Part shown: positions 32,188 to 60,743 of the stretch, piece by piece
How the letters are laid out: each line of letters starts with the position of its first letter
Position numbering within the stretch: position 1 is the stretch's first letter
Translations under genes and position numbers: made by a program
Notes under the pieces: model-generated
Seen by the model: only the letters and a program-made list of their open reading frames with translations
Told to the model about the DNA's origin: nothing
The model's database searches: none
Source of the DNA: Klebsiella pneumoniae
GTDB lineage: Bacteria > Desulfobacterota > Binatia > UBA12015
Length of the DNA stretch: 64,000 nucleotides
Assembly: GCA_945872365.1 (NCBI GenBank)
Contig: CAMBZJ010000004.1
Location: 68,265 to 132,264, forward strand
Direction: 5' to 3'

Positions 32188-32261
32188 GCCCCCGTAGCTC
32201 AGGTGGATAGAGCACAGGATTCCTAATCCTGGGGTCCCGCGTTCGAATCGCGGCGGGGGCA
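32188..32261 (+). tRNA. tRNA-Arg (anticodon CCT)
   Basis: Cloverleaf folded by hand: acceptor GCCCCCG/CGGGGGC; D arm GCTC...GAGC; anticodon stem CAGGA/TCCTG with loop TTCCTAA; T arm CCGCG-TTCGAAT-CGCGG; 74 nt, CCA not encoded. Confidence 0.9.
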
Positions 32262-32286
32262 TGACGGGGCGTTCGCGGCGAGACAC

Positions 32287-34161
32287 TTGCCCGAGGAGGC
32301 CCCCCTCATGCCGTCTGATGACAGCCAAGTCTGCCTGACTCAGGCGGAACGCGAAACACTCCGCATCCGCTATCGCGAAGAGCGCGACAAGCGCCTGCGC
32401 GCCGACGGCAACCACCAGTATGTCGAGCCGACCGGTCGCTTCGCCCACTTCGTCGAAGACCCCTATGTCCCGCGGGTCGAGCGCGCACCGGTCTTCTCCG
32501 AGGTCACGGTCGCGTTCATCGGTGGTGGCTTCGCCGGACTCTGCACCGGCGCCCGCATGAAACAGGCGGGTATCGAGGACTTCCACATCATCGAGGGGGG
32601 CGGCGACTTCGGCGGGGTCTGGTACTGGAACCGATACCCCGGCGCGATGTGCGACACGGCGGCGATGGTCTACCTGCCGCTCATCGAGGAGGTCGGCACC
32701 CGGCCTACGATGAAGTACGTCCTTGCGCCGGAGATCTGGCGCCACGCGCTGCGGATCGCCGAGGCCTTCGGGCTGCGCGGGAAGGCGCTCTTCTCGACCA
32801 ACGTCACGCTGCTCGAGTGGGACGAATGCGACGCGCGCTGGGTCATCCACACCGACCGCGGCGACCGGATCCGCGCGCGTTTCGTCGCGATGGGCACGGG
32901 GCCCCTTCACCGGCCGAAACTCCCCGGGGTCCCGGGGCTGGAAAGCTTCGGCGGTCAAGCCTTTCATACGAGCCGCTGGGACTATGCATGGACCGGCGGC
33001 GACCCGAGCGGGTCTCCCATGACCCGACTTGCCGATAAGCGGGTCGGGATCATCGGCACGGGTGCGACCGCCGTGCAGTGCATCCCCCCACTCGGACGCG
33101 ACGCAAGGGAACTCTTCGTGTTCCAGCGCACGCCCTCGTCGATCGACGTCCGCAACAACCACCCGATCGACCCGGCCTGGTTCGATAGCCTCGATCCTGG
33201 CTGGCAGGCGAAGTGGCTCATGAACTTCGCGACGCTCCAGACCGGCGGCTTCGCCGACGAGGATCTCGTGCAGGACGGCTGGACCGACATCGCGACCCGG
33301 GTCCGGGATCGCATCGTGAAAGACCTCGGCGAGAGCGGCAGCATGCTCGACATGGCCGCGATCCGGAAGGCCTTCGAGGGCAGCGACGACGAGAAGATGA
33401 CCGAGATCCGGGCGCGCGTGGACGCGATCGTGAGGGATCCCGCGACCGCGGAGAAGCTCAAGCCCTGGTACCGCCAGCTCTGCAAGCGTCCCTGTTTCCA
33501 CGACGAGTATCTCCAGAGCTTCAATCGGCCGAACGTGCACCTCGTCGACACCGACGGCAAGGGAGTCGAGCGTATCGACGCGACCGGCGTCTGGGCGAAC
33601 GGCCGGCACTTTGCGCTCGACGGCCTCGTCTTCGCCTCGGGCTTCGAGTTCGCGACCGACTTCACGCGCAGGTGCGGCTTCGAGACGAGAGGGCGGGACG
33701 GCGAGACGCTGTCCGCGCACTGGAAGGGCGGCATGCGGAGCCTGCACGGCATCCACGCGCACGGCTTCCCCAACCTCTTCATCGTGAGTCTCTCGCAGGG
33801 AGGCGGACTCATCTCGAATATCACCCAGAACCTGGTCGAGGCCGGCACGACGATCGCGAAGGTGGTGCGCCATGCGCTCGACGCCGGGCGCGAGCATGTC
33901 GAGGCGACGCCTGCGGCCGAGGGTTTCTGGGTCGACCTGATCGAGAGCGCCCCCGATACCTTTCTCGGCAACCCGGAGTGCACGCCGGGCTACTACAACA
34001 ACGAGGGCCAGGAGATGGGCCGACGAGAACGCCTGAACGTCGGGCGGCACCCGCTCGGTCCGGTCGCCTACTTCCAGTACATCGACGAGTGGCGCAAGTC
34101 GGGGCGATTCGAGGGCCTCGAGTTCCGACGCGCATCCGAGGCGGCGAAGGTCGCGGGCTGA
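32287..34161 (+). CDS. Type I Baeyer-Villiger (flavin-containing) monooxygenase
   Basis: Two Rossmann motifs (GGGFAGL; GIIGTGATAVQ) and the BVMO fingerprint FGGQAFHTSRWD (FxGxxxHxxxWD). Confidence 0.88.
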   Translation: MPEEAPLMPSDDSQVCLTQAERETLRIRYREERDKRLRADGNHQYVEPTGRFAHFVEDPYVPRVERAPVFSEVTVAFIGGGFAGLCTGARMKQAGIEDFHIIEGGGDFGGVWYWNRYPGAMCDTAAMVYLPLIEEVGTRPTMKYVLAPEIWRHALRIAEAFGLRGKALFSTNVTLLEWDECDARWVIHTDRGDRIRARFVAMGTGPLHRPKLPGVPGLESFGGQAFHTSRWDYAWTGGDPSGSPMTRLADKRVGIIGTGATAVQCIPPLGRDARELFVFQRTPSSIDVRNNHPIDPAWFDSLDPGWQAKWLMNFATLQTGGFADEDLVQDGWTDIATRVRDRIVKDLGESGSMLDMAAIRKAFEGSDDEKMTEIRARVDAIVRDPATAEKLKPWYRQLCKRPCFHDEYLQSFNRPNVHLVDTDGKGVERIDATGVWANGRHFALDGLVFASGFEFATDFTRRCGFETRGRDGETLSAHWKGGMRSLHGIHAHGFPNLFIVSLSQGGGLISNITQNLVEAGTTIAKVVRHALDAGREHVEATPAAEGFWVDLIESAPDTFLGNPECTPGYYNNEGQEMGRRERLNVGRHPLGPVAYFQYIDEWRKSGRFEGLEFRRASEAAKVAG

Positions 34162-34170
34162 ACGAAGAGT

Positions 34171-35082
34171 CTACTCGGCGGTGCCCCGCTCCTTCAGGTG
34201 TCTCGCGAGTTGACGGTCGTGCCGGCTCGCGGCGCTCAAGGGGGCGATGTAGGGCTCCCAACGCGGCGGGCCCGCGGCGGATGGCCGGTCGCCCATGACG
34301 GTCACGCGCTGGATAAGGCGGTCGCCCTCGAAGTCGTCGAGCACGTGGTGCTGTGTGCAGCGATTGTCCCAGATGGCGATCGTGCCCGCCGTCCAGCGGT
34401 AGCGGACGGTGAAGCGCGGGCTGGTCGCCCAGCGGACGAGGAAGGCGAGGAGTGCGTCGCTCTCCTGGTGGCTCAGCTCGACGATGCGCCGGGTGAAGTG
34501 TTCGTTCACGAAGAGCGACTTGCGCCCGGTCTCCGGGTGGACCCGCACGACCGGGTGGATCGCGGTGCGCTCGGAGTGGCCGTGGGGATCTGCGTCGTGG
34601 AGCGCGGTCAGACCCTCGCAGAAGTCGCGCATCGCGGGCGAGAGCGTGTCGTAGGCGCGGTACATGTTGGCCCAGAGCGTGTCGCCGCCGACCTCCGGGC
34701 ACTCTGCCATCTGGAGGATCGACAGGACCGACGGCTCGTCGGCGCAGGTGAGGTCACTGTGCCACTCGTCGGCGATGCCCCCCACGCCGCCGCGTGCATG
34801 GAGCTGGAAGAATTCCGGCCGCTCCGAGCGCAGGTCGAGATTCGGGTGCGACTCGAGCTTCCCGAAGAGCCGCCCGAAGGCGACATGCTGGTCGGGATCG
34901 AGGTGCTGGCCTGGCAGGAACAGGACGAGGTGTTCGAGCAGCAACTCGCGGAGCCGATGGGCCTCCGCGGGCCCCGCCTTCGCGATCTCGATTCCCGTGA
35001 CCTCCGCGCCCAGGGACCCGGACAGGCGCCGGATGCTCAATTCGCCTCGCTGGTGGTGGTGGTGGTGGTCGCTCGTCTCCAT
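34171..35082 (-). CDS. TauD/TfdA-family Fe(II)/2-oxoglutarate dioxygenase
   Basis: WHSDLT (HxD) iron site plus a distal His region; the N-terminus carries a native His5 run (METSDHHHHHQ). Confidence 0.8.
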   Translation of the reverse strand: METSDHHHHHQRGELSIRRLSGSLGAEVTGIEIAKAGPAEAHRLRELLLEHLVLFLPGQHLDPDQHVAFGRLFGKLESHPNLDLRSERPEFFQLHARGGVGGIADEWHSDLTCADEPSVLSILQMAECPEVGGDTLWANMYRAYDTLSPAMRDFCEGLTALHDADPHGHSERTAIHPVVRVHPETGRKSLFVNEHFTRRIVELSHQESDALLAFLVRWATSPRFTVRYRWTAGTIAIWDNRCTQHHVLDDFEGDRLIQRVTVMGDRPSAAGPPRWEPYIAPLSAASRHDRQLARHLKERGTAE

Positions 35083-35267
35083 GTTTCCTCCACCGCGTTG
35101 CGGCCCCTCGGAGGGCTGGCGCCGGCGCGGGCGACGGAACTTGCAGCAGGCCCGTCTCCAGGCCGCGGAGCCCTAAAAGCCCGGAGCCCCCGGAATATCC
35201 GGCGGCGGGGGAAGCAGTCAACGAGGGATCTCCCACGAGGATCGACGTCGTGCCGGCGGTGCGAGCT

Positions 35268-36020
35268 TCAGGTGGCGGACGGAGTCTCGACCGACTCCTG
35301 CACGGTGGGGGCGCTCTCCCGGCCTCGCCGGATCATGCGAAAGGCGGTCCCCGTCGCACCGAGCCTCGGATAGGGTCCGGTGGATCGGACGTAGAGGATC
35401 GGCTCGCTGTGGACGATCTCGAAGGAGGGTGAGAAGAGCGACGGAACGTCGGCGTCGGAACCTCTTCGCGAAAACAGGAGGAACTTCGCTCCCGGGCGCG
35501 CCCACGAGGTCAGGTTCGCGAGGTAGACCTCGCGCTGCAGGACCGGGAGGACGTGGTAGCAGCCGCGGTCGAACAGGAAGTCGAAGCGTCCCTCCATTTC
35601 TTCGGTGGCTTGCGAGACGTCGAGCGTGCGGAACTCGAGGCGTGGCGCCAGGTGCCCGAAGTGAAGGCTTCCGAGCCGGGTCGCCTCCTCGGAGATGTCG
35701 GCAGCCAGCACGTCGAACCCCTGCTCGGCGAGCCATGCGGCGACCTGTCCCCGGCCCGTCCCGACGTCGATGCACCGGGATCCGGGTGCGATCCATCCGT
35801 CCGCGACCGCCGTCTTCAGTTGATCCGGCACGACGTCGGCGAGCACGCCGGGGTCACGGGAGCGCTCGACGACCCACTGGCGCTCCCAGTAGCGCTCGTC
35901 GAACGTCCGCAACACGGGCTCCAGGTGGCGCCCGAGCCAGCGAAATGGCCCGGGTAGGGCGATCAGCCGCCATGCGGAGCGGCGAACGCGATCTCCCCAG
36001 TCCAGCGCGATCCTCTTCAT
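35268..36020 (-). CDS. Class I SAM-dependent methyltransferase (TPMT/TehB-like)
   Basis: IDVGTGRGQVAAWLAEQGFDVLAADIS SAM-binding motif I; ATG at 36020 (alternative 36026). Confidence 0.75.
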   Translation of the reverse strand: MKRIALDWGDRVRRSAWRLIALPGPFRWLGRHLEPVLRTFDERYWERQWVVERSRDPGVLADVVPDQLKTAVADGWIAPGSRCIDVGTGRGQVAAWLAEQGFDVLAADISEEATRLGSLHFGHLAPRLEFRTLDVSQATEEMEGRFDFLFDRGCYHVLPVLQREVYLANLTSWARPGAKFLLFSRRGSDADVPSLFSPSFEIVHSEPILYVRSTGPYPRLGATGTAFRMIRRGRESAPTVQESVETPSAT

Positions 36021-36574
36021 GCCCATCGTTCGACAACTTGCCCGAAAGCTCGGGACGCCGTGCTTGGCGTAAAGCGCCCAGCCTCGGAAACTCCGCTCGC
36101 GGCGCCCCGCCCGTCTTCGAGCCGAGGCGATTCGCCGCGGGGAGCCGGGAGGAGGGGGCCGCCCCGCGGGGCGGCCCCCTTCGATGTCACTTCGCGAGGA
36201 CGACCAGTTCCGTCCTGCGGTTTCGTGCGCGCCCCTCGTCCGTGGTGACAGCCGCCATAAAGGCCCGATTGCGAGATCCGCGCCTTGATAGCGGACTACT
36301 GCAGGAGCCTTCGAGGGCCTTGTAGGGCAAAAACGAAGTCCGGTGCAAGGGGGTTTTCGGGATGCGTCGAGCTCTGGGGCGAGTTCAAGATAGCCGAGGC
36401 GTCGATTTCCGGGCGAGTCCGGCCCGGGGCCTCGGCTGCGCGCCCGCGCGGGTGCCCTCTCGCGCCCTGCGGGTACCGCGCCATCCGCCCGAATCACGGC
36501 CGCAGTTGCTGGTTGGGCGGGACGCGGACGGGGGGCAGTACTCAGGGAAGACCGACTGCCTGGGCGTCTCAAGG

Positions 36575-36965
36575 CGGGTGGACTCGCACGACCGGGTGGA
36601 TCGCGGTGCGCTCGGAGTGGCCGTGGGGATCTGCGTCATGGAGCGCGGTCAGGCCCTCGCAGAAGTCGCGCATCGCGGGCGAGAGCGTGTCGTAGGCGCG
36701 GTACATGTTGGTCCAAAGCGTGTGGCCGCCGACCTCCGGGCAGTTTGCCATCTGGAGGATCGACAGCACCGACGGCTCGTCGGCGCAGGTGAGATCGCTG
36801 TGTCACTCGTCGGCGATGCCCCCCACGCCGCCGCGTGCATGGAGCTGGAAGAATTCCGGTCGCTCCGAGCGCAGGTCATCCGAGCGCAGGTCGAGGTTCG
36901 GGTGCGACTCGAGCTTCCCGAAGAGCTGTCCAAACCCGTCATGCTGGTCGGGATCGAGGCGCTTA
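36575..36965 (-). pseudogene. Duplicated internal fragment of the TauD-family dioxygenase gene (remnant)
   Basis: ~380-bp near-identical direct repeat of 34533-34912 with point differences. One substitution turns the Trp codon of the WHSD iron-site motif into a stop. A 15-bp internal tandem duplication (CCGAGCGCAGGTCAT/CCGAGCGCAGGTCGA) is also present. No start codon or gene 5'/3' ends. Confidence 0.75.
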
Positions 36966-37026
36966 CCCTTGGGCGACCGGCGGGAGCGATCGTGACTCGC
37001 ACGCGCTCGCTCCTACAGTCGCTGTT

Positions 37027-37743
37027 TCAGTCCTGCTCCCGCATTGCCCCGACCATATGCATCGTGTAGAATGTGGTGTGAACCGACGGCGCAGATCCGT
37101 CGGGCGTCGAGACGATTCGGGTCCGCGTCTCCACCGACGTTCCTCCGTATGTGGATAGAAGCAGGATCCCGTCGACCTTCGAGAAAGACCCTTCGGCAAA
37201 GGCCGGGCCGCCGTCCGGGATCTCCGCCGGCGGCGGGGCGAGGAGGTCGATCTCGTAACGGAGTCCCGCGACGGGGCCACCGGTGACGAGGTCCTTCCGA
37301 CTGCCGGGGATCTGCGCGAGGATTACCCGGTCCGCATAGGACACCCAGCGAAAACCGATCTCGCTTTCGACCGTCCACGGAAGCCATGAAGGCGGATCGG
37401 CCGGGTCGTGGGGGCGTTGCCCGTCGAGCCCCGGGATGGCCGCTGCGTTCACGCTCGTGAAGCGGAAAGCCTTGCGGCCACGCCATCGTGCCGTCCCGTC
37501 GCGATCGAAGCTCAACGTCCCGGAGGAGGTTAAGTCGATATCGCGCTCGGGCACGCTCCGGGCTGGATCCTGGCCGGCCGCGTAGACGGTCACGCCGGCC
37601 GTCCAGATACCGTGAATCGGGCCGTCGGTCAGCGAGCGATGGCCACGGCCGAGTATGGGCAGAGCGGCTTCGGCGGCCCGCGTGGTACCGACTGCGGCGA
37701 GCACGCCGGTCGCGGCGAAGAATGGAAAATCTCGTCTCTGCAT
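37027..37743 (-). CDS. Hypothetical exported protein (Tat-like signal)
   Basis: MQRRDFPFFAATGVLAAVGTTRAAEA N-terminus; no recognisable domain. Confidence 0.55.
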   Translation of the reverse strand: MQRRDFPFFAATGVLAAVGTTRAAEAALPILGRGHRSLTDGPIHGIWTAGVTVYAAGQDPARSVPERDIDLTSSGTLSFDRDGTARWRGRKAFRFTSVNAAAIPGLDGQRPHDPADPPSWLPWTVESEIGFRWVSYADRVILAQIPGSRKDLVTGGPVAGLRYEIDLLAPPPAEIPDGGPAFAEGSFSKVDGILLLSTYGGTSVETRTRIVSTPDGSAPSVHTTFYTMHMVGAMREQD

Positions 37744-37989
37744 CCGGTGTTCCTCCTTGAATATAAACTTGGCCCGCGTGCGTCTCCCTTCGGATACGCC
37801 TGGGCGGGGGAGATGGTCAATTCGGCATTTTCGAAGTGGGCCGGGATTGTCGGGTGGCACGGTTCACGCGGAGGGACGGGTCTTCGAGGACAAGACCTGT
37901 TCGAGGTCATCGAGGATCGGCACGGGGAGCGGCGGAAGGGATGGGTTTCGCATCGCCGAGCACCAGGTCCTGAAGGGAGGCGCGGGCGC

Positions 37990-38080
37990 CACTTTCGAGC
38001 CTGGACTACCAAACCCCGATCGAGTTCAAGGCGGGGAGCATTAAGAATACCACCCAGCCGACGGAGTCAGATTCTCAATA
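37990..38080 (+). mobile_element. Remnant of an IS3/rve-type transposase C-terminus
   Basis: Frame ending ...LDYQTPIEFKAGS... matches the conserved C-terminal (L/G)Y.TP.EF motif of integrase-core transposases. Only ~25 codons are intact, in a locally lower-GC patch. Confidence 0.35.
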
Positions 38081-38271
38081 ATCGATTGGCCCAGAGAACC
38101 CGGGCAGCTCACAGGCTCCTTCGACGGGCGCTTCCAACCGACACGCCGGCCGAGTCATAACGCGGGCCTCGGCCCAGCCGCAAGCTGGAGTAATCCCCCG
38201 GGCGGTCGAACCCGGGTTCCGGTTGGTCCGGAGGCATGTTTCCAGGATAGGACGGGAGCCGGGGAGGATTC

Positions 38272-39486
38272 ATGGCACGCGTCATTAAACTCGGAATCAA
38301 GCGACCCGTGAGTGGTCCGCTGCTCCCGGACCCGGAGCCGCGCGAGGCTCTTTACACGATCATCTCGGTCGACGACCACCTGATGGAGCCGCCGCATCTC
38401 TTCGACGGGCGACTCCCTGCGCGCTTCGCCGAAGTTGCACCGCGCGTCGTCGAGACCGAAGAGGGCCACCAGGTCTGGGTCTTCGAGGACACGCCGTACT
38501 TTCAGGTGGGATTCATGTGCGTCGCTGGCCGCGCCCGAGACGACCAGCGCTTCGAGCCGGCGCGCTTCGAGGAGATGCGACGCGGGTGCTGGGACCCGGA
38601 CGCCCGCATTCGCGACATGGACATCAACGGAGTGTGGGCGTCGGTGAATTACCCGTCGGGCGTCACGGGCTTCGGCGGCACTCTCTTCTCCGAGGCGCGC
38701 GACAAGGAACTCGGGCTCGCCTGCGTGCGTGCCTGGAACGACTGGGTCTACGAGGAGTGGCACCAGCCGCATCCCGAGCGGATCATTCCGCTCGGGATCA
38801 CCTTTCTCGCCGACGCGGAGAAGGGCGCCGAGGAGATCCGTCGGAACGCAGCGCGCGGTTTTAAAGCGGTGACGGTTCCCGAGCAGCCGCACAAGCAGAA
38901 CCTCCCATCGGTCTTCGACCCGTTCTGGGAGCCGATCGTGCGGGCGTGCGCCGAGACCGGTACGGTGCTGTCGCTCCACGTCGGTTCGTCGGGCTTCGGC
39001 AGCATTCCGCCGGGCGGCGGCATGGAACTCGGCGCGACCAAGTTTGGGCCCATGGCGATCGAGACCTGCGCGGAGTGGCTCTGGAGCGGCTGGCCGGCCC
39101 GTTACCCGGACCTGAAGCTCGCGATTGCCGAGAGCGGGATCGGCTGGGTCGCGATGCTCTGCGACCGGCTCGACAACATCATGGCGCGATCGGGCTACGG
39201 CGCGGGCTGGCCTGACCCGAAGAACTCGCCGTCGGACGTGCTGCGGCGGAACTTCTGGTTCTGCCTGATCGACGACCCCTCGACAATCTGCACGCTCGAC
39301 AAGATTGGCATCGACCATGTGGTCGCCGAATCGGACTACCCTCACGGTGACGGAACCTGGCCCGACACGCAGCGCGTGATGCAGCGCATGCTCGGCGGGT
39401 TGCCCGACGAGTGGATCCGCAAGATATGCCACGAGAACGCGGCGAAGCTCTACCGCCATCCACTGCCGGCGACCTGTCGGCCCTGA
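38272..39486 (+). CDS. Amidohydrolase-2 family metal-dependent hydrolase (ACMSD/LigI-like)
   Basis: IISVDDHLMEPPHLF (the HxH-type metal site is replaced by DxH, as in this family) ... VAESDYPHGD C-terminal motif. Confidence 0.8.
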   Translation: MARVIKLGIKRPVSGPLLPDPEPREALYTIISVDDHLMEPPHLFDGRLPARFAEVAPRVVETEEGHQVWVFEDTPYFQVGFMCVAGRARDDQRFEPARFEEMRRGCWDPDARIRDMDINGVWASVNYPSGVTGFGGTLFSEARDKELGLACVRAWNDWVYEEWHQPHPERIIPLGITFLADAEKGAEEIRRNAARGFKAVTVPEQPHKQNLPSVFDPFWEPIVRACAETGTVLSLHVGSSGFGSIPPGGGMELGATKFGPMAIETCAEWLWSGWPARYPDLKLAIAESGIGWVAMLCDRLDNIMARSGYGAGWPDPKNSPSDVLRRNFWFCLIDDPSTICTLDKIGIDHVVAESDYPHGDGTWPDTQRVMQRMLGGLPDEWIRKICHENAAKLYRHPLPATCRP

Positions 39487-39614
39487 GCGCGCGGAGTCTC
39501 CTCCCGAAGGTTTTGCATCCTCCACGGGCCCCCTGATCTCAAGCAGCGATCGAGAAGCCGCCGCGAGACTTGGGCGAAGCTTGCTCGATGAGTGATTACT
39601 TCTAGAGTAGGGGC

Positions 39615-40460
39615 ATGGACTATCGGGTCGAGGACCTTGCTGCGGCGGCCGGGGTGACCGTGGACACCCTGCGGTACTACCAAGGAAAAGGGCTACTGCC
39701 GGCTCCGCGGAGAGTGGGGCGGCGGGTGGTCTACGGCTCGGTCCATCTCGAAGGACTCCAGCGCATTCGGGAATGGCAGGAACAGGGGCTGTCGCTGGCG
39801 GTGATCCGACGGTTGGTCGGGGGAAGGCGCGAAGATGGCCCACAAGCCGGCTCGAGGGCCGGCGCAGGGAGGAGCGCACCCGCCGCACGGGGGCCGGCGA
39901 ACCGACGGTCAAGCCGGCCGGCGAGCGCCCCCGCACTGGAAGACCGACTGCTCGACGCACTCGTGGCCGCGCGCGGTCCGGCACGCTTGAGCCGCGGGGA
40001 GCTGGCGACGGCGGCAGGGGTTCCGGAGGAATTGGTGTCGGCCGTCGTGCAGGCCGGTCTCGTCGAGCCGGTCACCGCCGGCGGGCAGGAGACCTTCGGT
40101 GCGACGGAGGTCGACATGGCTCGTGCCGCGCTCGCGCTGCTGCGAGAGGGTCTTCCGATCGGAGACTTACTCGGCCTCGCGATTGCGCATTCCGCCAACG
40201 TGCGTGTGGTGGTCGACCGCGCGATGGACCTCTTCACCGACCACGTTCGGCATACCGAAGGCGACGAGAGACCGGCGGAGGAAGTCGTGCATGCCTTCCA
40301 GCGGCTCATCCCCGCGGTCACGGCACTCGTCGCAAACCACTTCCACCGCACGCTCGTCGCCCGGGCTCTGGCACGTCTCGAGCGCGACGGGGAGAGGGAC
40401 GCCCTCGCGCACGCCATCGAGGCGACTCGCAGCGGTCGTCTGGAGGTCGCATGGCGCTAG
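39615..40460 (+). CDS. MerR-family transcriptional regulator with ~200-aa C-terminal domain
   Basis: N-terminal HTH YRVEDLAAAAGVTVDTLRYYQGKGLLP. Its stop overlaps the ubiE start by 10 nt. Confidence 0.8.
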   Translation: MDYRVEDLAAAAGVTVDTLRYYQGKGLLPAPRRVGRRVVYGSVHLEGLQRIREWQEQGLSLAVIRRLVGGRREDGPQAGSRAGAGRSAPAARGPANRRSSRPASAPALEDRLLDALVAARGPARLSRGELATAAGVPEELVSAVVQAGLVEPVTAGGQETFGATEVDMARAALALLREGLPIGDLLGLAIAHSANVRVVVDRAMDLFTDHVRHTEGDERPAEEVVHAFQRLIPAVTALVANHFHRTLVARALARLERDGERDALAHAIEATRSGRLEVAWR

Positions 40461-41152
40461 TGCTTCCGGAACCCGAGGCCAAGGCGGCCTCCGTGCGGGC
40501 GATGTTCGACCGGATCGCCCCGAGTTACGATCGCTTGAACGGGTTGCTCACGCTGCGCATGGACCGCGCGTGGCGTCGCGCAGCGATGGCATCGGCCGAA
40601 CTGACTCGGGGTGATCTGCTGGTGGACGTCGCCTGTGGTACGGGCGATTTCCTCGACCTGGCGGCGGACGCCGGGATCCGCGCGGTCGGTCTCGACTTCT
40701 CGGCAGGCATGCTCGCGGCCGCTCGGCGGCGCGGTACCGGGCCCCTCGTCCGAGCCGACGCGCTCGCCATGCCGCTACCCGACGCCTGCGCCGATGCGCT
40801 CACCTGCGGCTTTGCCTTGCGCAACTTCGTCGCGATTCCGCCCATGTTAGGCGAAGCGGCCCGCGTCCTGCGCCCGGGCGGCCGACTCGTCCTGCTCGAG
40901 GTCGCGACGCCGGAACATCCCGCCCTGCGCTTCGGCCACGCGCTCTACTTCCGGCGGCTCGTACCCTGGCTCGGTGCGCTCTTCGCCGAGCGAAGCGCCT
41001 ACGAATATCTGCCGCAGTCCACGGTCTACCTGCCGTCGCCAAGCGAACTGGGCCGGCAGGTTCGCGACGCCGGCTTCAGCGACATCATCCGCCGCACCTT
41101 CGGGCTGGGTGCCGTGCAGTTGATCTCCGCGCGCCGCCGGGGGACCGACTGA
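40451..41152 (+). CDS. ubiE: Demethylmenaquinone/ubiquinone methyltransferase
   Basis: MFDRIAPSYDRLN...LLVDVACGTGDF...VLRPGGRLVLLE. Confidence 0.88.
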   Translation: MALVLPEPEAKAASVRAMFDRIAPSYDRLNGLLTLRMDRAWRRAAMASAELTRGDLLVDVACGTGDFLDLAADAGIRAVGLDFSAGMLAAARRRGTGPLVRADALAMPLPDACADALTCGFALRNFVAIPPMLGEAARVLRPGGRLVLLEVATPEHPALRFGHALYFRRLVPWLGALFAERSAYEYLPQSTVYLPSPSELGRQVRDAGFSDIIRRTFGLGAVQLISARRRGTD

Positions 41153-42516
41153 TGCGGCGGGTCGACGAGAGTCCTGGCCGCGAAGCGGCACGGGGGTCGG
41201 TCGAATGGGCGTCGTGCGAAACCTCCCGGGAAGTCTCTCCCGTGGGCTTCCTGCGCGCCTTTCCCGACGAGCACCAGTTCCTGTGGTCCAGGGGCTCGAC
41301 AGGCGAAGCGATCGCCGCGGTCGGCCGGGTCGTTGGCTGGCGCGCTTGCGGGCCTGGACGATTCGGCGACGTCGCCGCTGCCATGCGCCACGCCTTCGCA
41401 GGTTCGACCGGGCCGGGGGCCGACCATGCCCTCGCGGTAGGCGGATTTGCCTTCGACGAGAACCACGTTGAGGGCGCCGACTGGCAGGGGTTCCCGGCCA
41501 CCGACTGGCTGTTTCCCCGCCTGGCACTGGTTCGACGTGCGGGTGTGACGCGACTGGTCGCGGCGGCGGCTTCGTGCGAATCGTCCGGAAATCCCTCCGG
41601 CACCGCGCGATCCGTCGCCGAAGCCGCCCTTCGCCGGCTCGCGACGGGACCCGATCGCTCCGGGGTGGCGCCACCCTCGGCCGGGTCGTCGGCTCGCTTC
41701 GAGATCGCCGCCACTTCTTCGGCTGACGACTGGCGCGGTGCGGTCGAGTCGCTACTGGCTCGCATCGCCGCAGGGTCCCTCGACAAGCTGGTTCTCGCCC
41801 GCTCGATTCGCGTATTCTCTGAACGGGTCTTCGATCCCCTGCGCGTCGTCGAGCGACTCGCCGAGGCCCATCCCGATTGCGCGACGTTCGCGGTCCGGCG
41901 GGGCCCGGCGACGCTCGTCGGTGCCACACCGGAGCGGTTGGTGCGGGTCCGGCAGCACGGCGTGGATGTTTCGGTTCTCGCGGGTACGGCGCGGCGAGGC
42001 GAGTCGAGGACCGACGACCGCGCACGCGGGCTCGCGCTGCTTGCCGCGGCAAAGGAGCGGCATGAGCACGCGCTCGTTCTCTCGGCCGTCCGCGAGGCGC
42101 TCGGGCCCCTGTGCGCTCGTGTCGCCTCCCCTGAGGCCCCGCGACTGTTGCGGACCCAGGCGGTGCAGCATCTCTGGACTCCGGTGCGAGGGGTCCTGCG
42201 GCCGGAGGCCGGGCTCTTCGACTGCGTCGCTGCCCTCCACCCGACGCCGGCCGTCTGCGGGACGCCTCGCGAGACGGCTCGCTCGCTCATCGAGTCGTCG
42301 GAAGGCCTTGCGCGGGGTTGGTGGTCGGGAGGCGTCGGCTGGAGCGATGGCCGCGGAGGCGAGGTTTCCGTCGTCCTGCGAAGTGCCTTGCTGCGCGATC
42401 GAGAGGCGCTTCTTTGCGCGGGAGCGGGAATCGTCGCCGGTTCACACTGGGAGGACGAACTCGAGGAGACCCGTCTCAAGTTGCGCCCCATGCTCGCGGC
42501 GCTTGTCGAGGTGTGA
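41152..42516 (+). CDS. menF: Isochorismate synthase (menaquinone-specific)
   Basis: Chorismate-binding C-terminal domain (PTPAVCGTPRETA...GWWSGGVGW...). TGATG overlap with ubiE. Confidence 0.85.
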   Translation: MRRVDESPGREAARGSVEWASCETSREVSPVGFLRAFPDEHQFLWSRGSTGEAIAAVGRVVGWRACGPGRFGDVAAAMRHAFAGSTGPGADHALAVGGFAFDENHVEGADWQGFPATDWLFPRLALVRRAGVTRLVAAAASCESSGNPSGTARSVAEAALRRLATGPDRSGVAPPSAGSSARFEIAATSSADDWRGAVESLLARIAAGSLDKLVLARSIRVFSERVFDPLRVVERLAEAHPDCATFAVRRGPATLVGATPERLVRVRQHGVDVSVLAGTARRGESRTDDRARGLALLAAAKERHEHALVLSAVREALGPLCARVASPEAPRLLRTQAVQHLWTPVRGVLRPEAGLFDCVAALHPTPAVCGTPRETARSLIESSEGLARGWWSGGVGWSDGRGGEVSVVLRSALLRDREALLCAGAGIVAGSHWEDELEETRLKLRPMLAALVEV

Positions 42517-42517
42517 G

Positions 42518-44311
42518 GTGGAGTCTCTCTCCGCCATCCCCAACCGCAGTTTCCTCGCACCGAAGGTGCTCGCGGCCGGCCTCGCGAATGCCGGTGTGAG
42601 CGACGTCTGCATCTCGCCCGGAAGTCGGTCGGCCCCACTCGCGCTCGCGTTTGCCGGGCAGGCCGGACTGCGCTGCTGGTCGCACGTGGACGAGCGCTCG
42701 GGGGCGTTCTTCGCACTCGGTCTCGCACGCGCCTCGCGCCGCCCTGTGGCCGTGCTGTGCACGTCGGGGACGGCGGCCGCGAACTTCCTGCCCGCCGTCG
42801 TCGAAGCGTGGCATGCGCGGGTCCCGCTCGTCGTGCTCACCGCCGACCGGCCTCCCGAGTTGCGCGATTGTGGCGCCGGACAGACGATCGATCAGCATCG
42901 GATCTTCGGGTCGCATGTACGCTGGTTCGTCGAGGTGTCGATCCCCGAACCTAGCGTCGAGGCCGTTCGGTGGCTTCGAAGTCTTGCCGGGCGGGCGGTC
43001 GCGGAAGCGCTCGGGCCGCCGGCCGGCCCGGTTCACCTGAACGTCCCGCTGCGTGAACCGCTCGTGCCCGTGGTGATTGCCGGCGACGTGCCCGAGGAAG
43101 TTGCGCGGTTCGCGACTTCGAGTCAGGCTGCGTTCCGACGCGCCGACAGCCCCCGACTGCGGGCCGACCGCGCCGCCATCGAAGCGGCTGCGTCCTCCCT
43201 CGTCGAATCTCGCCGCCCGATTCTCGTCGCCGGTCCGCTCGACGATCCCGATCCGGACCTGCCGGGTGCGGTCGCGGCGCTGGCCGACGCAATCGGTGCA
43301 CCGGTTCTCGCCGAACCGGCTTCGAATCTGCGTCGACCGGCCCTCGATGGCCGGCTGGTGGAGGCGCACGAGGCACTCCTGCGGACGCCGCACTTCGCGG
43401 AGTCCCACGAGTTCGACGCGGTGATTCGCCTCGGCGCGCCGCCGACGTCGAAATCGCTCGCCACGCGCTTGTGGTCCCGGGACGGCGTACCGCACGTCCT
43501 CCTCGACGGCGCGGACGGATGGCCCGACCCGGCGGCGGTGGCGACACACGTTCTTCGGTCGGAACCGACGATCGCCTGTGCGGACCTCGCGTGCGCAATC
43601 AGAGCGATCCGACCCGGCGAGCCTGCCGCGGATCCTGCCTGGCGGTCGTCGTGGACGGGTGCAGGCGAGTGCGCACGTCGGACCCTCGCCGAGGCTCGCA
43701 CCGGCGACAGCTTCGCGCACGAGGCGCATGTGATCGGAGCCCTCGCCGAAGCGCTTCCGGCTGGCGCACTGCTCTACGTCGGAAACAGCCTGGCGATCCG
43801 CGCGCTCGACTGGTTCTGGCCAGCCGATGCACCGCGCGTGCGCGTGCTGGCCAACCGCGGTGCGAACGGGATCGACGGCTTTGCGTCGAGTGTTCTCGGT
43901 GCGGCCGCGGCGTCGGTCGGACCGGTCGTCGGACTCTGCGGCGATCTCACGTTCTACCATGACCTGAACGGCCTGATGGCAATCCGGCGCTACGGGCTTC
44001 GGGTCGTCCTCGTGGTCATGAACAACGACGGTGGTGGCATCTTCGACTACCTGCCCGTGGCCGATCAGCCGCAGTACTACGAGGAGTTTTTCGCGACCCC
44101 CCACGGACTCGATTTTCGTCCAGTCGTCGAGATGTACGGGGCGGCTTTCGATCGCGTGAGTTCGCCTGCCGCGATCGCGGGAGCGATCCGCACCGCGCTG
44201 CGAGCGCCTGGATCAACGGTCGTCGAGGTTTCCCTGGATCGCCGTCTCGGGGTGGCTGCGCACCGGCGCGGTTGGGAAACCGTGCGCCTGGCCCTGGAGA
44301 AGGCGACATGA
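42518..44311 (+). CDS. menD: 2-succinyl-5-enolpyruvyl-6-hydroxy-3-cyclohexene-1-carboxylate synthase
   Basis: ThDP enzyme; ISPGSRSAPLALAF, CTSGTAAANFLPAVVEA, ...VVMNNDGGGIF. GTG start directly after the menF stop. Confidence 0.88.
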   Translation: MESLSAIPNRSFLAPKVLAAGLANAGVSDVCISPGSRSAPLALAFAGQAGLRCWSHVDERSGAFFALGLARASRRPVAVLCTSGTAAANFLPAVVEAWHARVPLVVLTADRPPELRDCGAGQTIDQHRIFGSHVRWFVEVSIPEPSVEAVRWLRSLAGRAVAEALGPPAGPVHLNVPLREPLVPVVIAGDVPEEVARFATSSQAAFRRADSPRLRADRAAIEAAASSLVESRRPILVAGPLDDPDPDLPGAVAALADAIGAPVLAEPASNLRRPALDGRLVEAHEALLRTPHFAESHEFDAVIRLGAPPTSKSLATRLWSRDGVPHVLLDGADGWPDPAAVATHVLRSEPTIACADLACAIRAIRPGEPAADPAWRSSWTGAGECARRTLAEARTGDSFAHEAHVIGALAEALPAGALLYVGNSLAIRALDWFWPADAPRVRVLANRGANGIDGFASSVLGAAAASVGPVVGLCGDLTFYHDLNGLMAIRRYGLRVVLVVMNNDGGGIFDYLPVADQPQYYEEFFATPHGLDFRPVVEMYGAAFDRVSSPAAIAGAIRTALRAPGSTVVEVSLDRRLGVAAHRRGWETVRLALEKAT

Positions 44312-45159
44312 AGCGCCCGGGCGCGGTGGGAAGCGCTGCTCGGCCCGAGGCACTGTCGTTTTGCCTGCACGGCGAGGGGCCGGCGCTCGTTCTGCTCCAC
44401 GGCTTCACCGGGAGTGCCTCGTCTTGGGACCCGGTCTTGATCGACGATCTCGGGAAAGCGCCGCGGACGATCATCGCGGTCGATTTGCCCGGGCACGGTG
44501 GTTCGCCTCTGCCCAGTCCGGGGGACCGACTCGGCGAGGTGGCCGATGCCGCGGTCTCCGTCCTCGACGAAGTGGGTGTCGAGCGGGCGGACTGGCTCGG
44601 CTACTCGCTGGGGGGCCGTGCGGCTCTGCACGTGGTGTTGCGACACCCGGACCGGGTGAATCGGCTCGTCCTCGAAGGTGCTTCGCCCGGGATCGCCGAT
44701 CGGGCGCAACGATCGGCCCGTGCCGAGGAAGATGCACGGCTCGCCAAGTCGATTGAAAGCGACGGGTTGTCCGCTTTCGTCGATCGATGGATGGCGCAGC
44801 CGATCTTCGCGACCCAACGGACCCTGCCGGTCGACGTGCGCGAGCGTGAACGTGAGAATCGTCTAGCCGGCTCGGCCCACGGCTACGCGGCAGCGCTGCG
44901 CTCGATGGGCACCGGGGTGCAGGAGCCCCTCTGGCAGGCACTCGGGGCGGTCGTAGCACCCGTCCTGCTCGTCGCCGGGGAGCACGACGAGAAGTTTCGC
45001 AGGCTCGCCGTCGACATGGCGGAAGCTCTGCCATGCGCGAGGCTCGAGATCGTCGCCGGGGCAGGTCATGCAGCTCACCTCGAGCGGCCGCGCGCCTTCG
45101 CCGCGACCGTCAGGCGTTTTCTCGACGAGCGAAGGCAGGACGGCCACGCGGCCGCCTGA
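44308..45159 (+). CDS. menH: SHCHC synthase (alpha/beta hydrolase)
   Basis: [14 protein letters not shown]...[10 protein letters not shown] nucleophile elbow. ATGA overlap with menD. Confidence 0.8.
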
Positions 45160-45196
45160 GCAGGACCGTCCGCATCACGAAGGAGGAATATTCGAC

Positions 45197-46015
45197 ATGG
45201 ACATCGCCTGGCGCAGCATGCGCAACTACGAGGACATCCGCTACGAGGTCGCAGACGGGATCGCCAAGATCACCATCGACAGGCCGGAGGTGAGGAACGC
45301 CTTCCGTCCGAAAACCCTTTTCGAACTCGCCGAAGCCTTCAACGCCGCCCGCGACGATTCCTCGGTAGGCGTCATCATCCTGACCGGAGAGGGGGATCTG
45401 GCGTTCTGCTCCGGGGGCGACCAACGCATCCGGGGCGAAGCGGGCTACGTGGGCGAGGATGGCGTGGCGCGGCTCAACGTCCTCGACCTGCAGCGCCAGA
45501 TCCGGACGTTGCCGAAACCGGTCATTGCCATGGTCGCGGGCTATGCGATCGGTGGCGGGCACGTGCTCCACGTGGTCTGCGACCTCACGATCGCCGCCGA
45601 CAACGCGATCTTCGGGCAAACCGGGCCGAAGGTCGGGTCCTTTGATGGTGGCTACGGCGCCGGTTACCTCGCGCGCATCGTCGGCCACAAGAAGGCTCGC
45701 GAAATCTGGTACCTCTGCCGACAATACGACGCGCGGCAGGCGCAGGAAATGGGACTCGTGAATCATGTCGTCCCGCTCGCAAGGCTGGAGGAGGAGACAG
45801 TCGCCTGGTGCCGCGAGATCCTCCAGAAGAGTCCGCTGGCCTTGCGCTGTCTCAAGGCCGCGTTCAATGCCGACACCGACGGACTCGCAGGTCTCCAGGA
45901 ACTCGCCGGCAACGCGACGCTGCTCTACTACATGTCCGAGGAAGCCAGGGAAGGAAAGACGGCCTTCCTCGAAAAGCGGCGTCCGGAGTTCGAAAGATTC
46001 CCGAGACTCCCGTGA
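45197..46015 (+). CDS. menB: 1,4-dihydroxy-2-naphthoyl-CoA synthase
   Basis: Crotonase fold; [14 protein letters not shown]...[25 protein letters not shown] at 45181. Confidence 0.93.
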
Positions 46016-46929
46016 GCGACGCGGCGAGCCTCGGGGGCGATCGGCCCGGCCGCAGAATCCGGATCTGGCTCGACGCCGCTCGACCGCGGACGCTCCCGGC
46101 CGCGTTCGTACCGGTGTTGGTGGGCACGGCGGCGTCGGCGAACGCCGGTGCATGGCGGCCAGAGACGGCCCTGCTCGCGCTGGCGAGCATGCTGCTGCTT
46201 CAGGTCGGGACGAACTTCCTGAACGATTGGGGCGACGCGCGGCGTGGCGCCGACGGAGAGGATCGCATCGGTCCGATCCGCGCGGTCCAGAGCGGGCTCC
46301 TTTCCCGCGAAGCCATGCTCGGGGGTGCGCTCGTCGCCTTCGCGAGCGCTTGTGCGATCGGGCTGCTGCTCGTGGCGCGCGGTGGCTGGCCCATCCTGGT
46401 GGCGGGATTGATCGGGCTTCTGGCCGGCGCTGGCTACACGGCCGGTCCCTATCCCTTTGCCTATCACGCATTGGGTGAGGTCGTCGTCTTCGTCGCCTTC
46501 GGTCCCCTCGCGGTCTGCGCGACCGAGTGGCTGCAACGGGGGGCCGTCTCGGCCGTGGGCGCCATCGCCTCGGTGGCAGTCGGGTTACTCGCCTCGGCGA
46601 TCCTCGTCGTGAACAACCTCCGCGACATCGAGAGCGATCGACGGGTCGGGAAGTACACGATCGCCGTCGCGCTGGGGGCCCCGGCGATGCGGTTCGTCTA
46701 TGTCGGCCTGCTGGGCGCGGCCGCGTGTGTCCCGTTGCTGCTCGCTTCGGGCGGGTTCACCTCCGGGCGCGTGCTGATCTCGTGGGGCGCGTTCCCGCTC
46801 GCAGTCGAGCCGTTGCGCGCGGTATTCGGCCCCCCCGACGGTCCGACGCTGAACGCGGCGCTGGCCGCGACCGCACGTTTCCTCCTCGTCTTCGGCGGGC
46901 TTCTGTCGCTCGGGCTCGTGGCAGGTTGA
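46012..46929 (+). CDS. menA: 1,4-dihydroxy-2-naphthoate octaprenyltransferase
   Basis: UbiA-family TM protein with [11 protein letters not shown] motif. GTGA overlap with menB. Confidence 0.88.
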
Positions 46930-46966
46930 CCATGGGCCTCGGGTACGGTTCGAGGCGCTGTCTACC

Positions 46967-60624: not shown

Positions 60625-60743
60625 GATGGTCTCCCGACCGGTGCTCTCTCCGGATGCATGCCTTGCCCGCCCTTCCGGCCGTCGATATACCAGCGCACCG
60701 GGCCGGGGGCATTCCCCGACGACCCGTGGGAGCGGGGGAGGCC

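Follow-up and report, generated by a model that had tools for sequence, protein, structure and literature searches.

A probable patch of independent oxygenase genes between tRNA-Arg(CCT) and the menaquinone operon

The 7.3 kb between a tRNA-Arg(CCT) gene and a MerR-men operon, within the 64,000-nucleotide stretch of DNA that we analyzed (the window), probably make up a lineage-specific patch with native composition, in which the genes are independent of one another and form no pathway cassette (Table 1). The left flank consists of core genes (nusA, infB, rbfA, truB, pnp, pur genes, nadB, dnaX, ybaB, recR and secF) and the right flank is the men operon; the stretch between the tRNA and this operon is filled with lineage-specific, non-housekeeping genes, in agreement with the first-pass annotation, which had described it as accessory metabolism. 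The gene content that it listed is also confirmed: the tRNA, a type I Baeyer-Villiger monooxygenase (BVMO), a TauD dioxygenase, a SAM methyltransferase, a Tat-signal ORF, a PF04909 protein and a MerR regulator. We regard the locus as an ordinary one, with known families in a patch of unrelated oxygenase genes that appear to form three independent transcription units. The first would be a PockeMO/PtlE-like type I BVMO standing alone on the + strand; the second a methyltransferase-TauD pair on the - strand, with a dead TauD fragment and a fast-evolving Tat-signal ORFan upstream of the pair; and the third the PF04909 gene, on the + strand and running into the MerR-men operon.

Table 1. Features from the tRNA-Arg gene to the men operon (window positions)
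Feature	Position	Strand	Remarks
tRNA-Arg (anticodon CCT)	32188..32261	+	ARAGORN; Rfam RF00005, 65 bits
Type I BVMO, PockeMO/PtlE-like long form	32308..34161	+	Motifs, PDB 5mq6, NCBIfam PtlE model
TauD/TfdA-family Fe(II)/2-oxoglutarate dioxygenase	34171..35082	-	PF02668, 9e-62; convergent with BVMO
Class I SAM-dependent methyltransferase	35268..36020	-	Methyltransf_25/23/11; upstream of TauD, co-directional
Non-coding spacer	36021..36574	.	No gene detected
Pseudogene, duplicated internal TauD fragment (residues ~59-183 of intact gene)	36575..36963	-	Direct repeat; PF02668
Lineage-restricted ORF, 238 aa, twin-arginine-like signal (by reading)	37027..37743	-	Starts MQRRDFPFFAATGVLAAVGTTRAAEA
Non-coding spacer between divergent Tat ORF and ARO gene	37744..38271	.	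Transposase-tail-like motif inside, unconfirmed
Putative amidohydrolase-related dinuclear oxygenase (ARO), DitZ/PtmU3-like	38272..39486	+	PF04909 at 1.1e-26; both ARO motifs
MerR-family regulator, Rv1828_C domain	39615..40460	+	PF13411, 9e-23; PF28507 precomputed
Menaquinone operon menG(ubiE)-menF-menD-menH-menB-menA-menC-menE	40451..49632	+	Pfam, NCBIfam; gene calls in near-identical contig L079

The PF04909 protein had been taken for an amidohydrolase-2 lactonase; the family was right but the lactonase assignment was not, and the motifs and fold are those of a two-metal oxygenase of the DitZ/PtmU3 type. Its signature motifs, D34-D35-H36 and D355-Y-P-H358-G-D360, are kept in 120/120 homologues; no hydrolase or decarboxylase of PF04909 that has been characterised carries D-x-H or D-x-P-H-x-D/E motifs of this kind, and the 'x' of D-x-H is Asp in DitZ (PMC13154177), as it is here. 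DitZ (8uyr) is matched at 2.4e-69 with the single sequence and 2.3e-82 with a family profile, and PtmU3 at 3e-36 and 1.8e-44 respectively. The order of PDB matches is DitZ, PtmU3, 4dzi and TruffO/SfbO/AibH2, followed by LigW and ACMSD decarboxylases, so that the best eight are ARO oxygenases or one uncharacterised relative; no LigI-type lactonase is matched in the PDB at E<=10 in either the single-sequence or the family-profile search. Foldseek on an AF2 model (pLDDT 85) also places DitZ at the top (TM 0.85, rmsd 2.5), with PtmU3 at TM 0.76. The protein thus groups away from the lactonases, as the first-pass annotation had allowed that it might, lying with the oxygenases and with the decarboxylases after these. 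A LigI-like lactonase was rejected because both ARO motifs are present, the top folds are oxygenases, and no lactonase appears at that threshold; both the sequence and the model indicate that this protein does not hydrolyse lactones.

The subfamily (405 aa) is very tightly conserved: clusters at >=72% identity number over 120, and 5,875 proteins fall within E<=1e-30. Comparison of strains reveals 3-4 synonymous and 0-1 nonsynonymous codon changes in the gene, which is under purifying selection. DitZ from Rhodococcus rhodochrous (PDB 8UYR) and PtmU3 (PDB 6OMP/6OMQ) are diiron high-potential AROs that hydroxylate diterpenoids (PMC13154177). We infer that the protein described here is of the same high-potential type, with a two-metal centre, probably diiron, coordinated by D34, H36, H236, E287, D355, H358 and D360, and that, with O2 and an external reductant, it would carry out C-H hydroxylation on a hydrophobic compound; the substrate is probably an acid of alicyclic or isoprenoid type, or its CoA thioester. 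No reductase partner (a Rieske or other ferredoxin) was seen among the gene calls run through Pfam, and these span most of the window.

The BVMO carries every type I fingerprint, including the full FxGxxxHxxxWD motif reported earlier; a motif scan places FGGQAFHTSRWD at residue 221 and GGVWYWNRYPGAMCD at residue 109, together with two Rossmann motifs. Its likely start is the ATG at 32308, with a TTG at 32287 upstream as a possible alternative. It aligns over its full length with PockeMO (5mq6, 1.5e-117), and the NCBIfam PtlE model is covered from position 1 to 587 of 587; the score of 675 bits falls below the equivalog cut-off of 1100, and the protein is therefore not a PtlE orthologue. Strains differ by 20-21 synonymous and 10 nonsynonymous codon changes, and the gene is under purifying selection. 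The enzyme would use FAD, NADPH and O2 to insert oxygen beside a ketone that is probably bulky or acyl-CoA-linked, and any esterase or lactonase acting after it would be encoded outside the block.

It had also been proposed that these two genes constitute a ketone-to-lactone-to-hydroxyacid route, in which the BVMO would produce a lactone for the PF04909 enzyme to open in the manner of LigI. BVMO products are indeed esters or lactones, and LigI does belong to PF04909 (PMC13154177); however, the ARO motifs and oxygenase fold matches described above already contradict this scheme, and the genes are unlinked both here and elsewhere. Here they belong to different transcription units, and the 4 kb that separate them include decayed DNA; among seven other genomic contexts of 80-88% homologues there is not a single case of the BVMO and ARO genes adjoining each other, or of either adjoining a TauD gene. 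BVMO orthologues (80-83% identity) lie in the order panBC-panD-BVMO-ACAD-smpB-tmRNA or CoA ligase-BVMO-ACAD-SDR-smpB, and ARO homologues (84-88% identity) lie among genes for MaoC/ChsH1-like, DUF35/ChsH2-like, Ltp2-like thiolase, SDR, CoA-ligase, enoyl-CoA hydratase and P450 proteins. We therefore consider the lactonase route highly improbable.

The best PDB match of the TauD gene product is PlaO1 (7qtd, 1.2e-71), a diterpenoid-modifying Fe/2OG enzyme (PMC12006828), with TauD next at 2e-55. It reaches 226 bits with the NCBIfam taurine dioxygenase model (cut-off 313) and 92 with that for PtlD (cut-off 550); the HxD motif is H108-S-D110, and an N-terminal His run varies in length between strains. 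A segment of this gene (34534-34907) recurs in the pseudogene with 96%/91% identity, bearing out the gene-fragment duplication noted previously. The copy matches PF02668 at 3e-12 on a 66-aa ORF, has a TGG>TGA stop ahead of the HxD motif and a 15-nt internal tandem duplication, and is found also in L043 and L085. The adjacent methyltransferase, earlier termed TPMT-like, is a class I SAM methyltransferase, but its TPMT match is weak (31 bits), as are its TPMT/TehB-like similarities overall, and no NCBIfam model reaches its own cut-off. Its 4-5 synonymous and 6-7 nonsynonymous changes between strains are small counts that suggest weak constraint.

The Tat ORF has no match in Pfam, NCBIfam or the PDB, only two representatives among 1.84 billion, and a single-sequence AF2 model with a pLDDT of 33. 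It differs from L085 at 45 of 717 nt, compared with 4 of 1215 nt in the adjoining ARO gene, and is locally hypervariable and fast-evolving; neither it nor the methyltransferase gene is clearly under purifying selection. Of the two spacers, the one beside the methyltransferase gene is 99.2-99.3% identical between strains and the one beside the ARO gene 99.8-100% identical in L078 and L085. For the first of these, Pfam gave no match to the four longest of twelve stop-free six-frame stretches (>=45 aa). An insertion sequence remnant had been reported, and the sole candidate that we found is a short transposase-tail-like motif, SLDYQTPIEFKAGS, at ~37990-38030 (+); Pfam, NCBIfam and tblastn gave it no support in any frame of the two non-coding stretches, and the remnant is not sustained. 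The truncated TauD duplicate and ~1.1 kb of non-coding DNA are nonetheless signs of local rearrangement and of decay, and decay had been claimed earlier.

The genes could in principle cooperate on one substrate class (terpenoid or alicyclic) as a loose catabolic module that is not an operon, with the ARO, TauD or both hydroxylating a scaffold, a dehydrogenase encoded elsewhere making the ketone, the BVMO turning this into an ester or lactone, and a hydrolase, likewise from another locus, opening it. Among characterised or solved proteins, those closest to the three oxygenases (PtlE/PockeMO, PlaO1 and DitZ/PtmU3) all act on terpenoid or polycyclic scaffolds (PMC12006828, PMC13154177), and therefore a common substrate class is conceivable; all three genes are intact, and the BVMO and ARO genes are under purifying selection. 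Nevertheless, the homologues are not co-localised in the seven other contexts, the block has no dehydrogenase, esterase, transporter or dedicated regulator, its units are parted by a pseudogene and non-coding DNA, and at 33-45% identity little can be predicted about substrate from the nearest solved structure. Such cooperation seems unlikely.

An old island, acquired horizontally at tRNA-Arg(CCT) and since stripped of integrase and att sites and ameliorated in composition, seems quite unlikely. What stands of the island proposal is a synteny breakpoint just past the tRNA. The order secF then tRNA-Arg(CCT) is shared by L001, L002, L041 and L043, and beyond the species synteny was compared in three short contigs (L001, L002 and L003). 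In L002 the tRNA is followed by a dGTPase gene whose place in the window is 28 kb downstream, whereas L001 has a BVMO there (86% aa identity), with an extra gene ahead of the tRNA and a tRNA-BVMO gap of 600 nt rather than the 46 nt seen here. The pseudogene fragment and ORFan within the block also favor an island. So do BVMO and ARO homologues at 70-88% identity, whose MAGs carry the labels of several different phyla, a distribution that suggests mobility of these families. However, codon bias (0.195-0.276, against 0.12-0.37 in other genes) and tetranucleotide deviation (-0.2 to +1.7 SD, with up to +2.1 in the men operon) are native and indistinguishable from the flanks. There is no confirmed insertion sequence. 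As had been noted, an integrase and a tRNA-derived repeat are likewise absent: a search with the final 16-30 nt of the tRNA, allowing ~15-20% mismatches, gave no other match in the 64 kb. Moreover, each of six same-species contigs (L041, L043, L078-L080 and L085) carries whatever part of the block it overlaps, at 97.7-99.99% nucleotide identity, and the tRNA-Arg-BVMO arrangement is kept in a genus-level relative at ~84%. The 28 kb interval missing in L002 includes the men operon as well as a type I secretion system, and rearrangement therefore looks likelier than a 7-kb island. We favor the reading of a native patch, the present arrangement of which probably arose by local rearrangement at the synteny breakpoint beside the tRNA.

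The MerR gene, previously counted in the block, is real but heads the men operon, and starts just past 39600, where the block had been taken to end. The order MerR-menG-menF-menD... is kept in relatives at 54-61% identity with other upstream neighbours, and MerR is the first gene of a conserved MerR-menGFD(H)BACE operon outside the accessory block.

Several known systems bear comparison. Like tRNA-integrated genomic islands, the block lies directly 3' of a tRNA, has accessory content and a pseudogene fragment, and sits where relatives differ; unlike them, it has no integrase, tRNA 3'-end direct repeat or compositional deviation, is invariant in presence among the sampled strains, and the interval variable in L002 spans a housekeeping operon. 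The BVMO shares FxGxxxHxxxWD, the long GGxWxxxxYPGxxxD motif and two Rossmann motifs with the long-form type I enzymes PockeMO (polycyclic ketone monooxygenase, PDB 5MQ6) and PtlE/PntE ((neo)pentalenolactone D synthases), and it can be aligned with PockeMO end to end, from the N-terminal extension through to the C-terminal region; its orthologues (80-83%) differ in lying beside acyl-CoA dehydrogenase and smpB genes, often with CoA-ligase and SDR genes, and not in terpenoid biosynthetic clusters. TauD resembles PlaO1 (PDB 7QTD) and TauD/AtsK in its full-length PF02668 domain and HxD motif, but is paired with a methyltransferase, unlike the tauABC or pla cluster genes. LigI, the 2-pyrone-4,6-dicarboxylate lactonase, shares the PF04909 superfamily with the block protein but has neither of its two motifs (PMC13154177), and shows no pairwise or profile similarity to it at E<=10. 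Compared with DitZ and PtmU3, the ARO belongs to a separate subfamily (33% and 27% identical, respectively) outside any dit or ptm cluster, but it has in common with them the PF04909 TIM-barrel fold, the N-terminal D-D-H, the C-terminal D-Y-P-H-x-D and a full-length alignment.

Gene finding in the window relied on third-position GC first, because the window is about 68% GC, and on profile searches (Pfam, NCBIfam) second. The features of the 32.3–39.6 kb block and its flanks are collected in the table, and the list of block genes in the first-pass annotation proves right on profile searches and motif reading. Rfam returns the tRNA alone, and no regulatory RNA, for the block; promoter and terminator scans gave counts near the shuffled expectation and are uninformative. 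We note that a solitary secF, lacking a neighbouring secD, follows recR, and that the order dnaX-ybaB-recR-secF is also found in the related contigs L001 and L002 and in L016.

Features of the block and its flanks (window coordinates)
Feature	Position	Strand	Remarks
Left flank, core genes			nusA, infB, rbfA, truB, pnp, peptidase, purB/C/Q/L/F, nadB, transglycosylase, dnaX, ybaB, recR, secF
secF	31108-32121		last left-flank gene before the tRNA
tRNA-Arg(CCT)	32188-32261		
Baeyer-Villiger monooxygenase (BVMO)	32308-34161	+	
TauD (Fe(II)/2OG dioxygenase)	34171-35082	-	
SAM methyltransferase (MT)	35268-36020	-	
Non-coding			0.55 kb, between MT and TauD fragment
TauD fragment	36575-36963	-	pseudogene
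Tat-signal ORF	37027-37743	-	
Non-coding			0.53 kb (528-nt spacer), between Tat-signal ORF and PF04909 gene
PF04909 protein (predicted ARO)	38272-39486	+	
MerR	39615-40460	+	
menG-F-D-H-B-A-C-E	ends 49632		right flank
S15 peptidase, type I secretion system			after the men operon
dGTPase	60627-61901		after the secretion system

Characterised members of PF04909 include hydrolases (LigI), decarboxylases (LigW, ACMSD) and amidohydrolase-related dinuclear oxygenases, or AROs (PtmU3, AibH2, SfbO, DitZ) (PMC10811679, PMC13154177). Two motifs define the AROs, D-x-H in the N-terminal part (strand 1) and D-x-P-H-x-D/E in the C-terminal part, both stated to be absent from every characterised PF04909 hydrolase or decarboxylase; the enzymes are further marked by a redox-active dinuclear Fe/Mn cofactor and O2-dependent oxidation; a neighbouring Rieske-ferredoxin reductase partner was the route to the discovery of the low-potential AROs and is not a universal criterion (PMC10811679, PMC13154177). 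The window protein is a PF04909 (amidohydrolase_2) TIM-barrel (Pfam 1.1e-26) in which the first motif is present as D34-D35-H36, within a predicted strand (E30-37) and aligned with the DDH of DitZ and the DSH of PtmU3, all three residues being invariant in an alignment of 31 sequences. The second motif is D355-Y-P-H-G-D360, preceded by at least about 200 residues as the ARO definition asks, and aligned with DYPHSD of DitZ and DYPHLE of PtmU3. Both motifs are found in all 120 of the 120 closest homologues.

The best PDB match of this protein is DitZ (2.4e-69 with the single sequence and 2.3e-82 with the family profile), followed by PtmU3 (3e-36 and 1.8e-44), the uncharacterised 4dzi, the oxygenases TruffO, SfbO and AibH2, and then LigW (1e-7) and ACMSD (1e-5); no LigI chain or other lactonase appears among the matches at E<=0.01 (single sequence) or E<=10 (profile). 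An AlphaFold (AF2) model built from 31 homologues (pLDDT 85) superposes best in Foldseek on DitZ (TM 0.85, rmsd 2.5 Å, 33% identity), with PtmU3 next. Because motifs, PDB ranking and fold all place the protein with the oxygenases and not with the lactonases, the earlier reading of it as a LigI-like lactonase has to be abandoned. It is, on its sequence and modelled fold, a predicted O2-activating dinuclear oxygenase of the ARO superfamily, whose two-metal, probably diiron, centre would catalyse C-H hydroxylation of a hydrophobic acid or CoA ester. No reductase partner came to light: neither Rieske nor ferredoxin domains turned up in the Pfam-scanned gene calls, a set spanning most of the 64-kb window, or beside ARO homologues in other contigs.

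The first-pass annotation had also taken the block for a probable old island next to tRNA-Arg, while remarking that neither an integrase nor a tRNA-derived repeat was visible, and that remark is borne out. No integrase or recombinase lies by the tRNA in the block gene calls or in the 10 scanned of the 22 stop-free six-frame spacer stretches (at least 45 aa); a search with the last 16–30 nt of the tRNA, allowing 2–6 mismatches on both strands of the whole 64-kb window, gave no match, and a repeat search of the window returned no family matching the tRNA 3' end. Judged against the 64-kb window alone, the block is native in GC, GC3, codon bias and tetranucleotides: its GC is 0.655–0.694 (window 0.64–0.75), the Karlin codon bias of its genes, 0.195–0.276 against 0.12–0.37 for the rest, stays within the core-gene range, and its tetranucleotide deviation is −0.2 to +1.7 SD, with values up to +2.1 in the men operon. 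Six same-species metagenome contigs (L041, L043 and L078–L080, from lakes, and L085; 97.7–99.99% nucleotide identity) have the same arrangement wherever they overlap the block. Integrase, tRNA-derived repeat and deviant composition, the testable hallmarks of an island, are all missing.

In the genus-level relative L001 (secF 86%, recR 90%, BVMO 86% aa) the order is secF, an extra 424-aa gene, tRNA-Arg and BVMO, after which the contig ends; the extra gene (L001 11060–12331, minus strand) has a PP-loop-like SGGVDS motif, and the gap between tRNA and BVMO is about 600 nt, compared with 46 nt in the window. In L002, a more distant relative (secF 75%, recR 85%), tRNA-Arg is followed directly by a dGTPase gene (both within L002 2911–4951, corresponding to window 32188–32261 plus 60476–62124); the block and a further 21 kb beyond it, the men operon among them, are lacking there. 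Since the L002 dGTPase adjoins the tRNA and that of the window lies at 60.6 kb, the two differ by 28 kb that include the men operon and secretion system, and this segment (block, men operon, S15 peptidase and type I secretion system) must be elsewhere or absent in the L002 lineage. The relative L003 (69%) has no tRNA at the corresponding place. The tRNA is a synteny breakpoint, but nothing marks 32.3–39.6 kb as a discrete acquired element.

MerR does not belong to the block, with which it was previously counted, but opens the men operon (39615–49632). It carries an Rv1828_C domain (PF28507), differs between strains by synonymous changes only, and in relatives (L081, L082; 54–61% identity) is likewise followed by menG-menF-menD, with unrelated upstream neighbours (CheW and an enoyl-CoA hydratase in one relative, an ABC transporter in a second). 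An Rv1828_C-type MerR heading menG-F-D-(H)-B-A-C-E may be a regulator dedicated to menaquinone synthesis. A role for the ARO in menaquinone synthesis, considered because its gene adjoins the operon, was rejected since the relatives' MerR-men operons have other genes upstream. Adjacency to a tRNA and accessory-looking content do not suffice for an island call, and in this case the evidence from composition, att repeats and strains, like the flanking regulator's membership of the men operon, points the other way.

The type I BVMO has the full fingerprint claimed for it, FxGxxxHxxxW[P/D] being present as FGGQAFHTSRWD at residue 221 and the long motif [A/G]GxWxxxx[F/Y]P[G/M]xxxD as GGVWYWNRYPGAMCD at 109, together with Rossmann motifs at 79 (GGGFAG) and 257 (GTGATA). 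Compared with solved BVMOs it matches PockeMO over its full length (1.5e-117), PAMO (5e-76) and OTEMO, STMO and CHMO (1e-57 to 6e-65), and its score of 674.9 bits against NCBIfam NF045818, the PtlE/PntE neopentalenolactone/pentalenolactone D synthase equivalog, is below the cut-off of 1100. We classify it as a PockeMO/PtlE-like long form, which, with FAD, NADPH and O2, would turn a bulky or acyl-linked ketone into an ester or lactone. Orthologues at 80–83% identity occur either in the order panBC-panD-BVMO-(acyl-CoA dehydrogenase)-smpB-tmRNA or as CoA ligase-BVMO-acyl-CoA dehydrogenase-SDR-smpB; in L075, L076, L077 and L084, contigs carrying such orthologues, the BVMO is always just 5' of smpB, usually with the acyl-CoA dehydrogenase between them, while tmRNA follows smpB in L076 and L077 and panBC-panD lies upstream of the BVMO in two cases.

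The TauD protein matches PF02668 (9e-62, profile positions 2–267), has the HxD iron ligands as H108-S-D110 and, by sequence reading, the distal His in WDNRCTQHH. It falls below the cut-off of the taurine dioxygenase equivalog NF007104 (226.3 bits against 313), and its nearest solved relative is PlaO1 (1.2e-71); it would carry out a 2OG-dependent oxidation, possibly together with the adjoining methyltransferase. The protein begins METSDHHHHHQ, and the histidine run (35053–35067) varies in length, with three in the same-species contig L043, five in the window and six in L041. The gene-fragment duplication reported earlier is real and dead: the TauD fragment is a duplicate at 96%/91% identity that has lost both gene ends and carries a TGG>TGA stop immediately 5' of the HxD motif and a 15-nt internal duplication. 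This tandem duplication (36878–36892, GACCTGCGCTCGGAT/G) belongs to the window strain and is not seen in L043 or L085.

An IS remnant had been reported from the same region, the sole IS-like candidate being a short motif, SLDYQTPIEFKAGS, that resembles a DDE-transposase tail. It is unconfirmed because the 10 stretches scanned, of 22 stop-free six-frame ones (at least 45 aa) in 35990–36600 and 37720–38290, have no Pfam or NCBIfam match, and the stitched transposase-tail-like peptide has none in Pfam, in NCBIfam or by tblastn against plasmids. In the spacer between the ARO gene and MerR (window ~39548), L078 (2330–2535) and L080 (1660–1865) have about 206 extra nt that are absent from the window and L079, with a short GCGATC-like microhomology at the junction.

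The Tat-signal ORF has a candidate signal read from the sequence, MQRRDFPFFAATGVLAAVGTTRAAEA (twin-arginine, hydrophobic stretch and AxA-type site), and strains scarcely differ in its first 27 residues. It has no match in Pfam, NCBIfam or PDB sequences, its single-sequence AF2 model (pLDDT 33) is unusable, and an exhaustive HMMER search found only two representatives, both from the same lineage. Against the same-species contig L085 (2011–2727) it differs by 45 substitutions in 717 nt, with no indels and the ORF length kept, whereas the neighbouring ARO gene differs at 4 of 1215 nt and the 528-nt spacer by a single substitution. The differences lie in three patches (37031–37186, 37324–37402 and 37507–37615) that are mosaic among strains, L043 included; this ORFan is locally hypervariable. 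A diversity-generating retroelement was considered and rejected, there being no template repeat in the window and no annotated reverse transcriptase. Codon changes between strains number 9 synonymous and 13 nonsynonymous in the Tat-signal ORF (13 and 27 against L085) and 4–5 and 6–7 in the methyltransferase, both of which look weakly constrained, compared with 20–21 and 10 in the BVMO and 3–4 and 0–1 in the ARO. Decay or fast evolution thus seems to affect the middle of the block, while the two oxygenases that flank it are maintained.

The proposed route from ketone to lactone to acid is not encoded here, since the PF04909 protein is a predicted oxygenase and gene order, in the window and elsewhere, gives no sign that BVMO and ARO work together. 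A stretch of 4.1 kb that includes the pseudogene, the ORFan and 1.1 kb without coding sequence separates the BVMO from the ARO gene, which continues into the MerR-men operon; the BVMO and TauD genes are convergent, 9 bp apart, and the methyltransferase and TauD are co-directional. In GCA_900174565.1 the BVMO and ARO families are on separate contigs. It is conceivable that BVMO, TauD and ARO cooperate on one class of terpenoid or polycyclic substrate, as the closest characterised relatives of all three act on such scaffolds (PMC12006828, PMC13154177), but we consider this unlikely: gene neighbourhoods lend it no support, and in those of the homologues examined neither the BVMO nor the ARO family is ever beside the other, a TauD gene or an esterase. 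We regard the locus as ordinary: a patch of oxygenase genes specific to the lineage, sited where gene order has been rearranged.

The ARO has a different usual home. Its subfamily, of which the window member has 405 aa, numbers more than 5,800 proteins at E<=1e-30; every one of the closest 120 clusters is at least 72% identical, and the homologues come from uncultured soil and freshwater lineages labelled Binatia, Myxococcota or Deltaproteobacteria. Homologues at 84–88% identity (in L036, L037–L038 and L039–L040) lie amid genes for MaoC/ChsH1-like, DUF35/ChsH2-like and Ltp2-like thiolase proteins, in clusters that also hold SDRs, CoA ligases, enoyl-CoA hydratases, an acyl-CoA dehydrogenase and P450s. 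This is the gene set of steroid/terpenoid acyl-CoA side-chain degradation, and the ChsH1/ChsH2/Ltp2-like setting hints at a hydroxylation, as yet uncharacterised, in the catabolism of alicyclic or steroid acyl-CoAs. Because these hydratase-aldolase, CoA-ligase, SDR and P450 genes adjoin it, we tentatively propose that this large, tightly conserved and uncharacterised subfamily could supply a diiron C-H hydroxylation so far unrecognised in the breakdown of steroid, terpenoid or alicyclic acyl-CoA side chains, being mis-annotated everywhere as 'amidohydrolase', and that the window copy could be stray but functional.

An amidohydrolase 2 beside a BVMO invites a lactone-hydrolysis reading, and pathway inference from the Pfam name alone would be wrong here and for thousands of near-identical environmental homologues; more useful leads are the large ARO subfamily tied to ChsH/Ltp2-type clusters and the locally hypervariable, putatively secreted ORFan. 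The parts of the block are newly found members of already known families. DitZ is a diiron, high-potential enzyme with an Asp between the D and H of D-x-H (PMC13154177). The window ARO likewise has an Asp at this position, and it differs from LigI, whose type of active site is without D-x-H and D-x-P-H-x-D/E, in having both.
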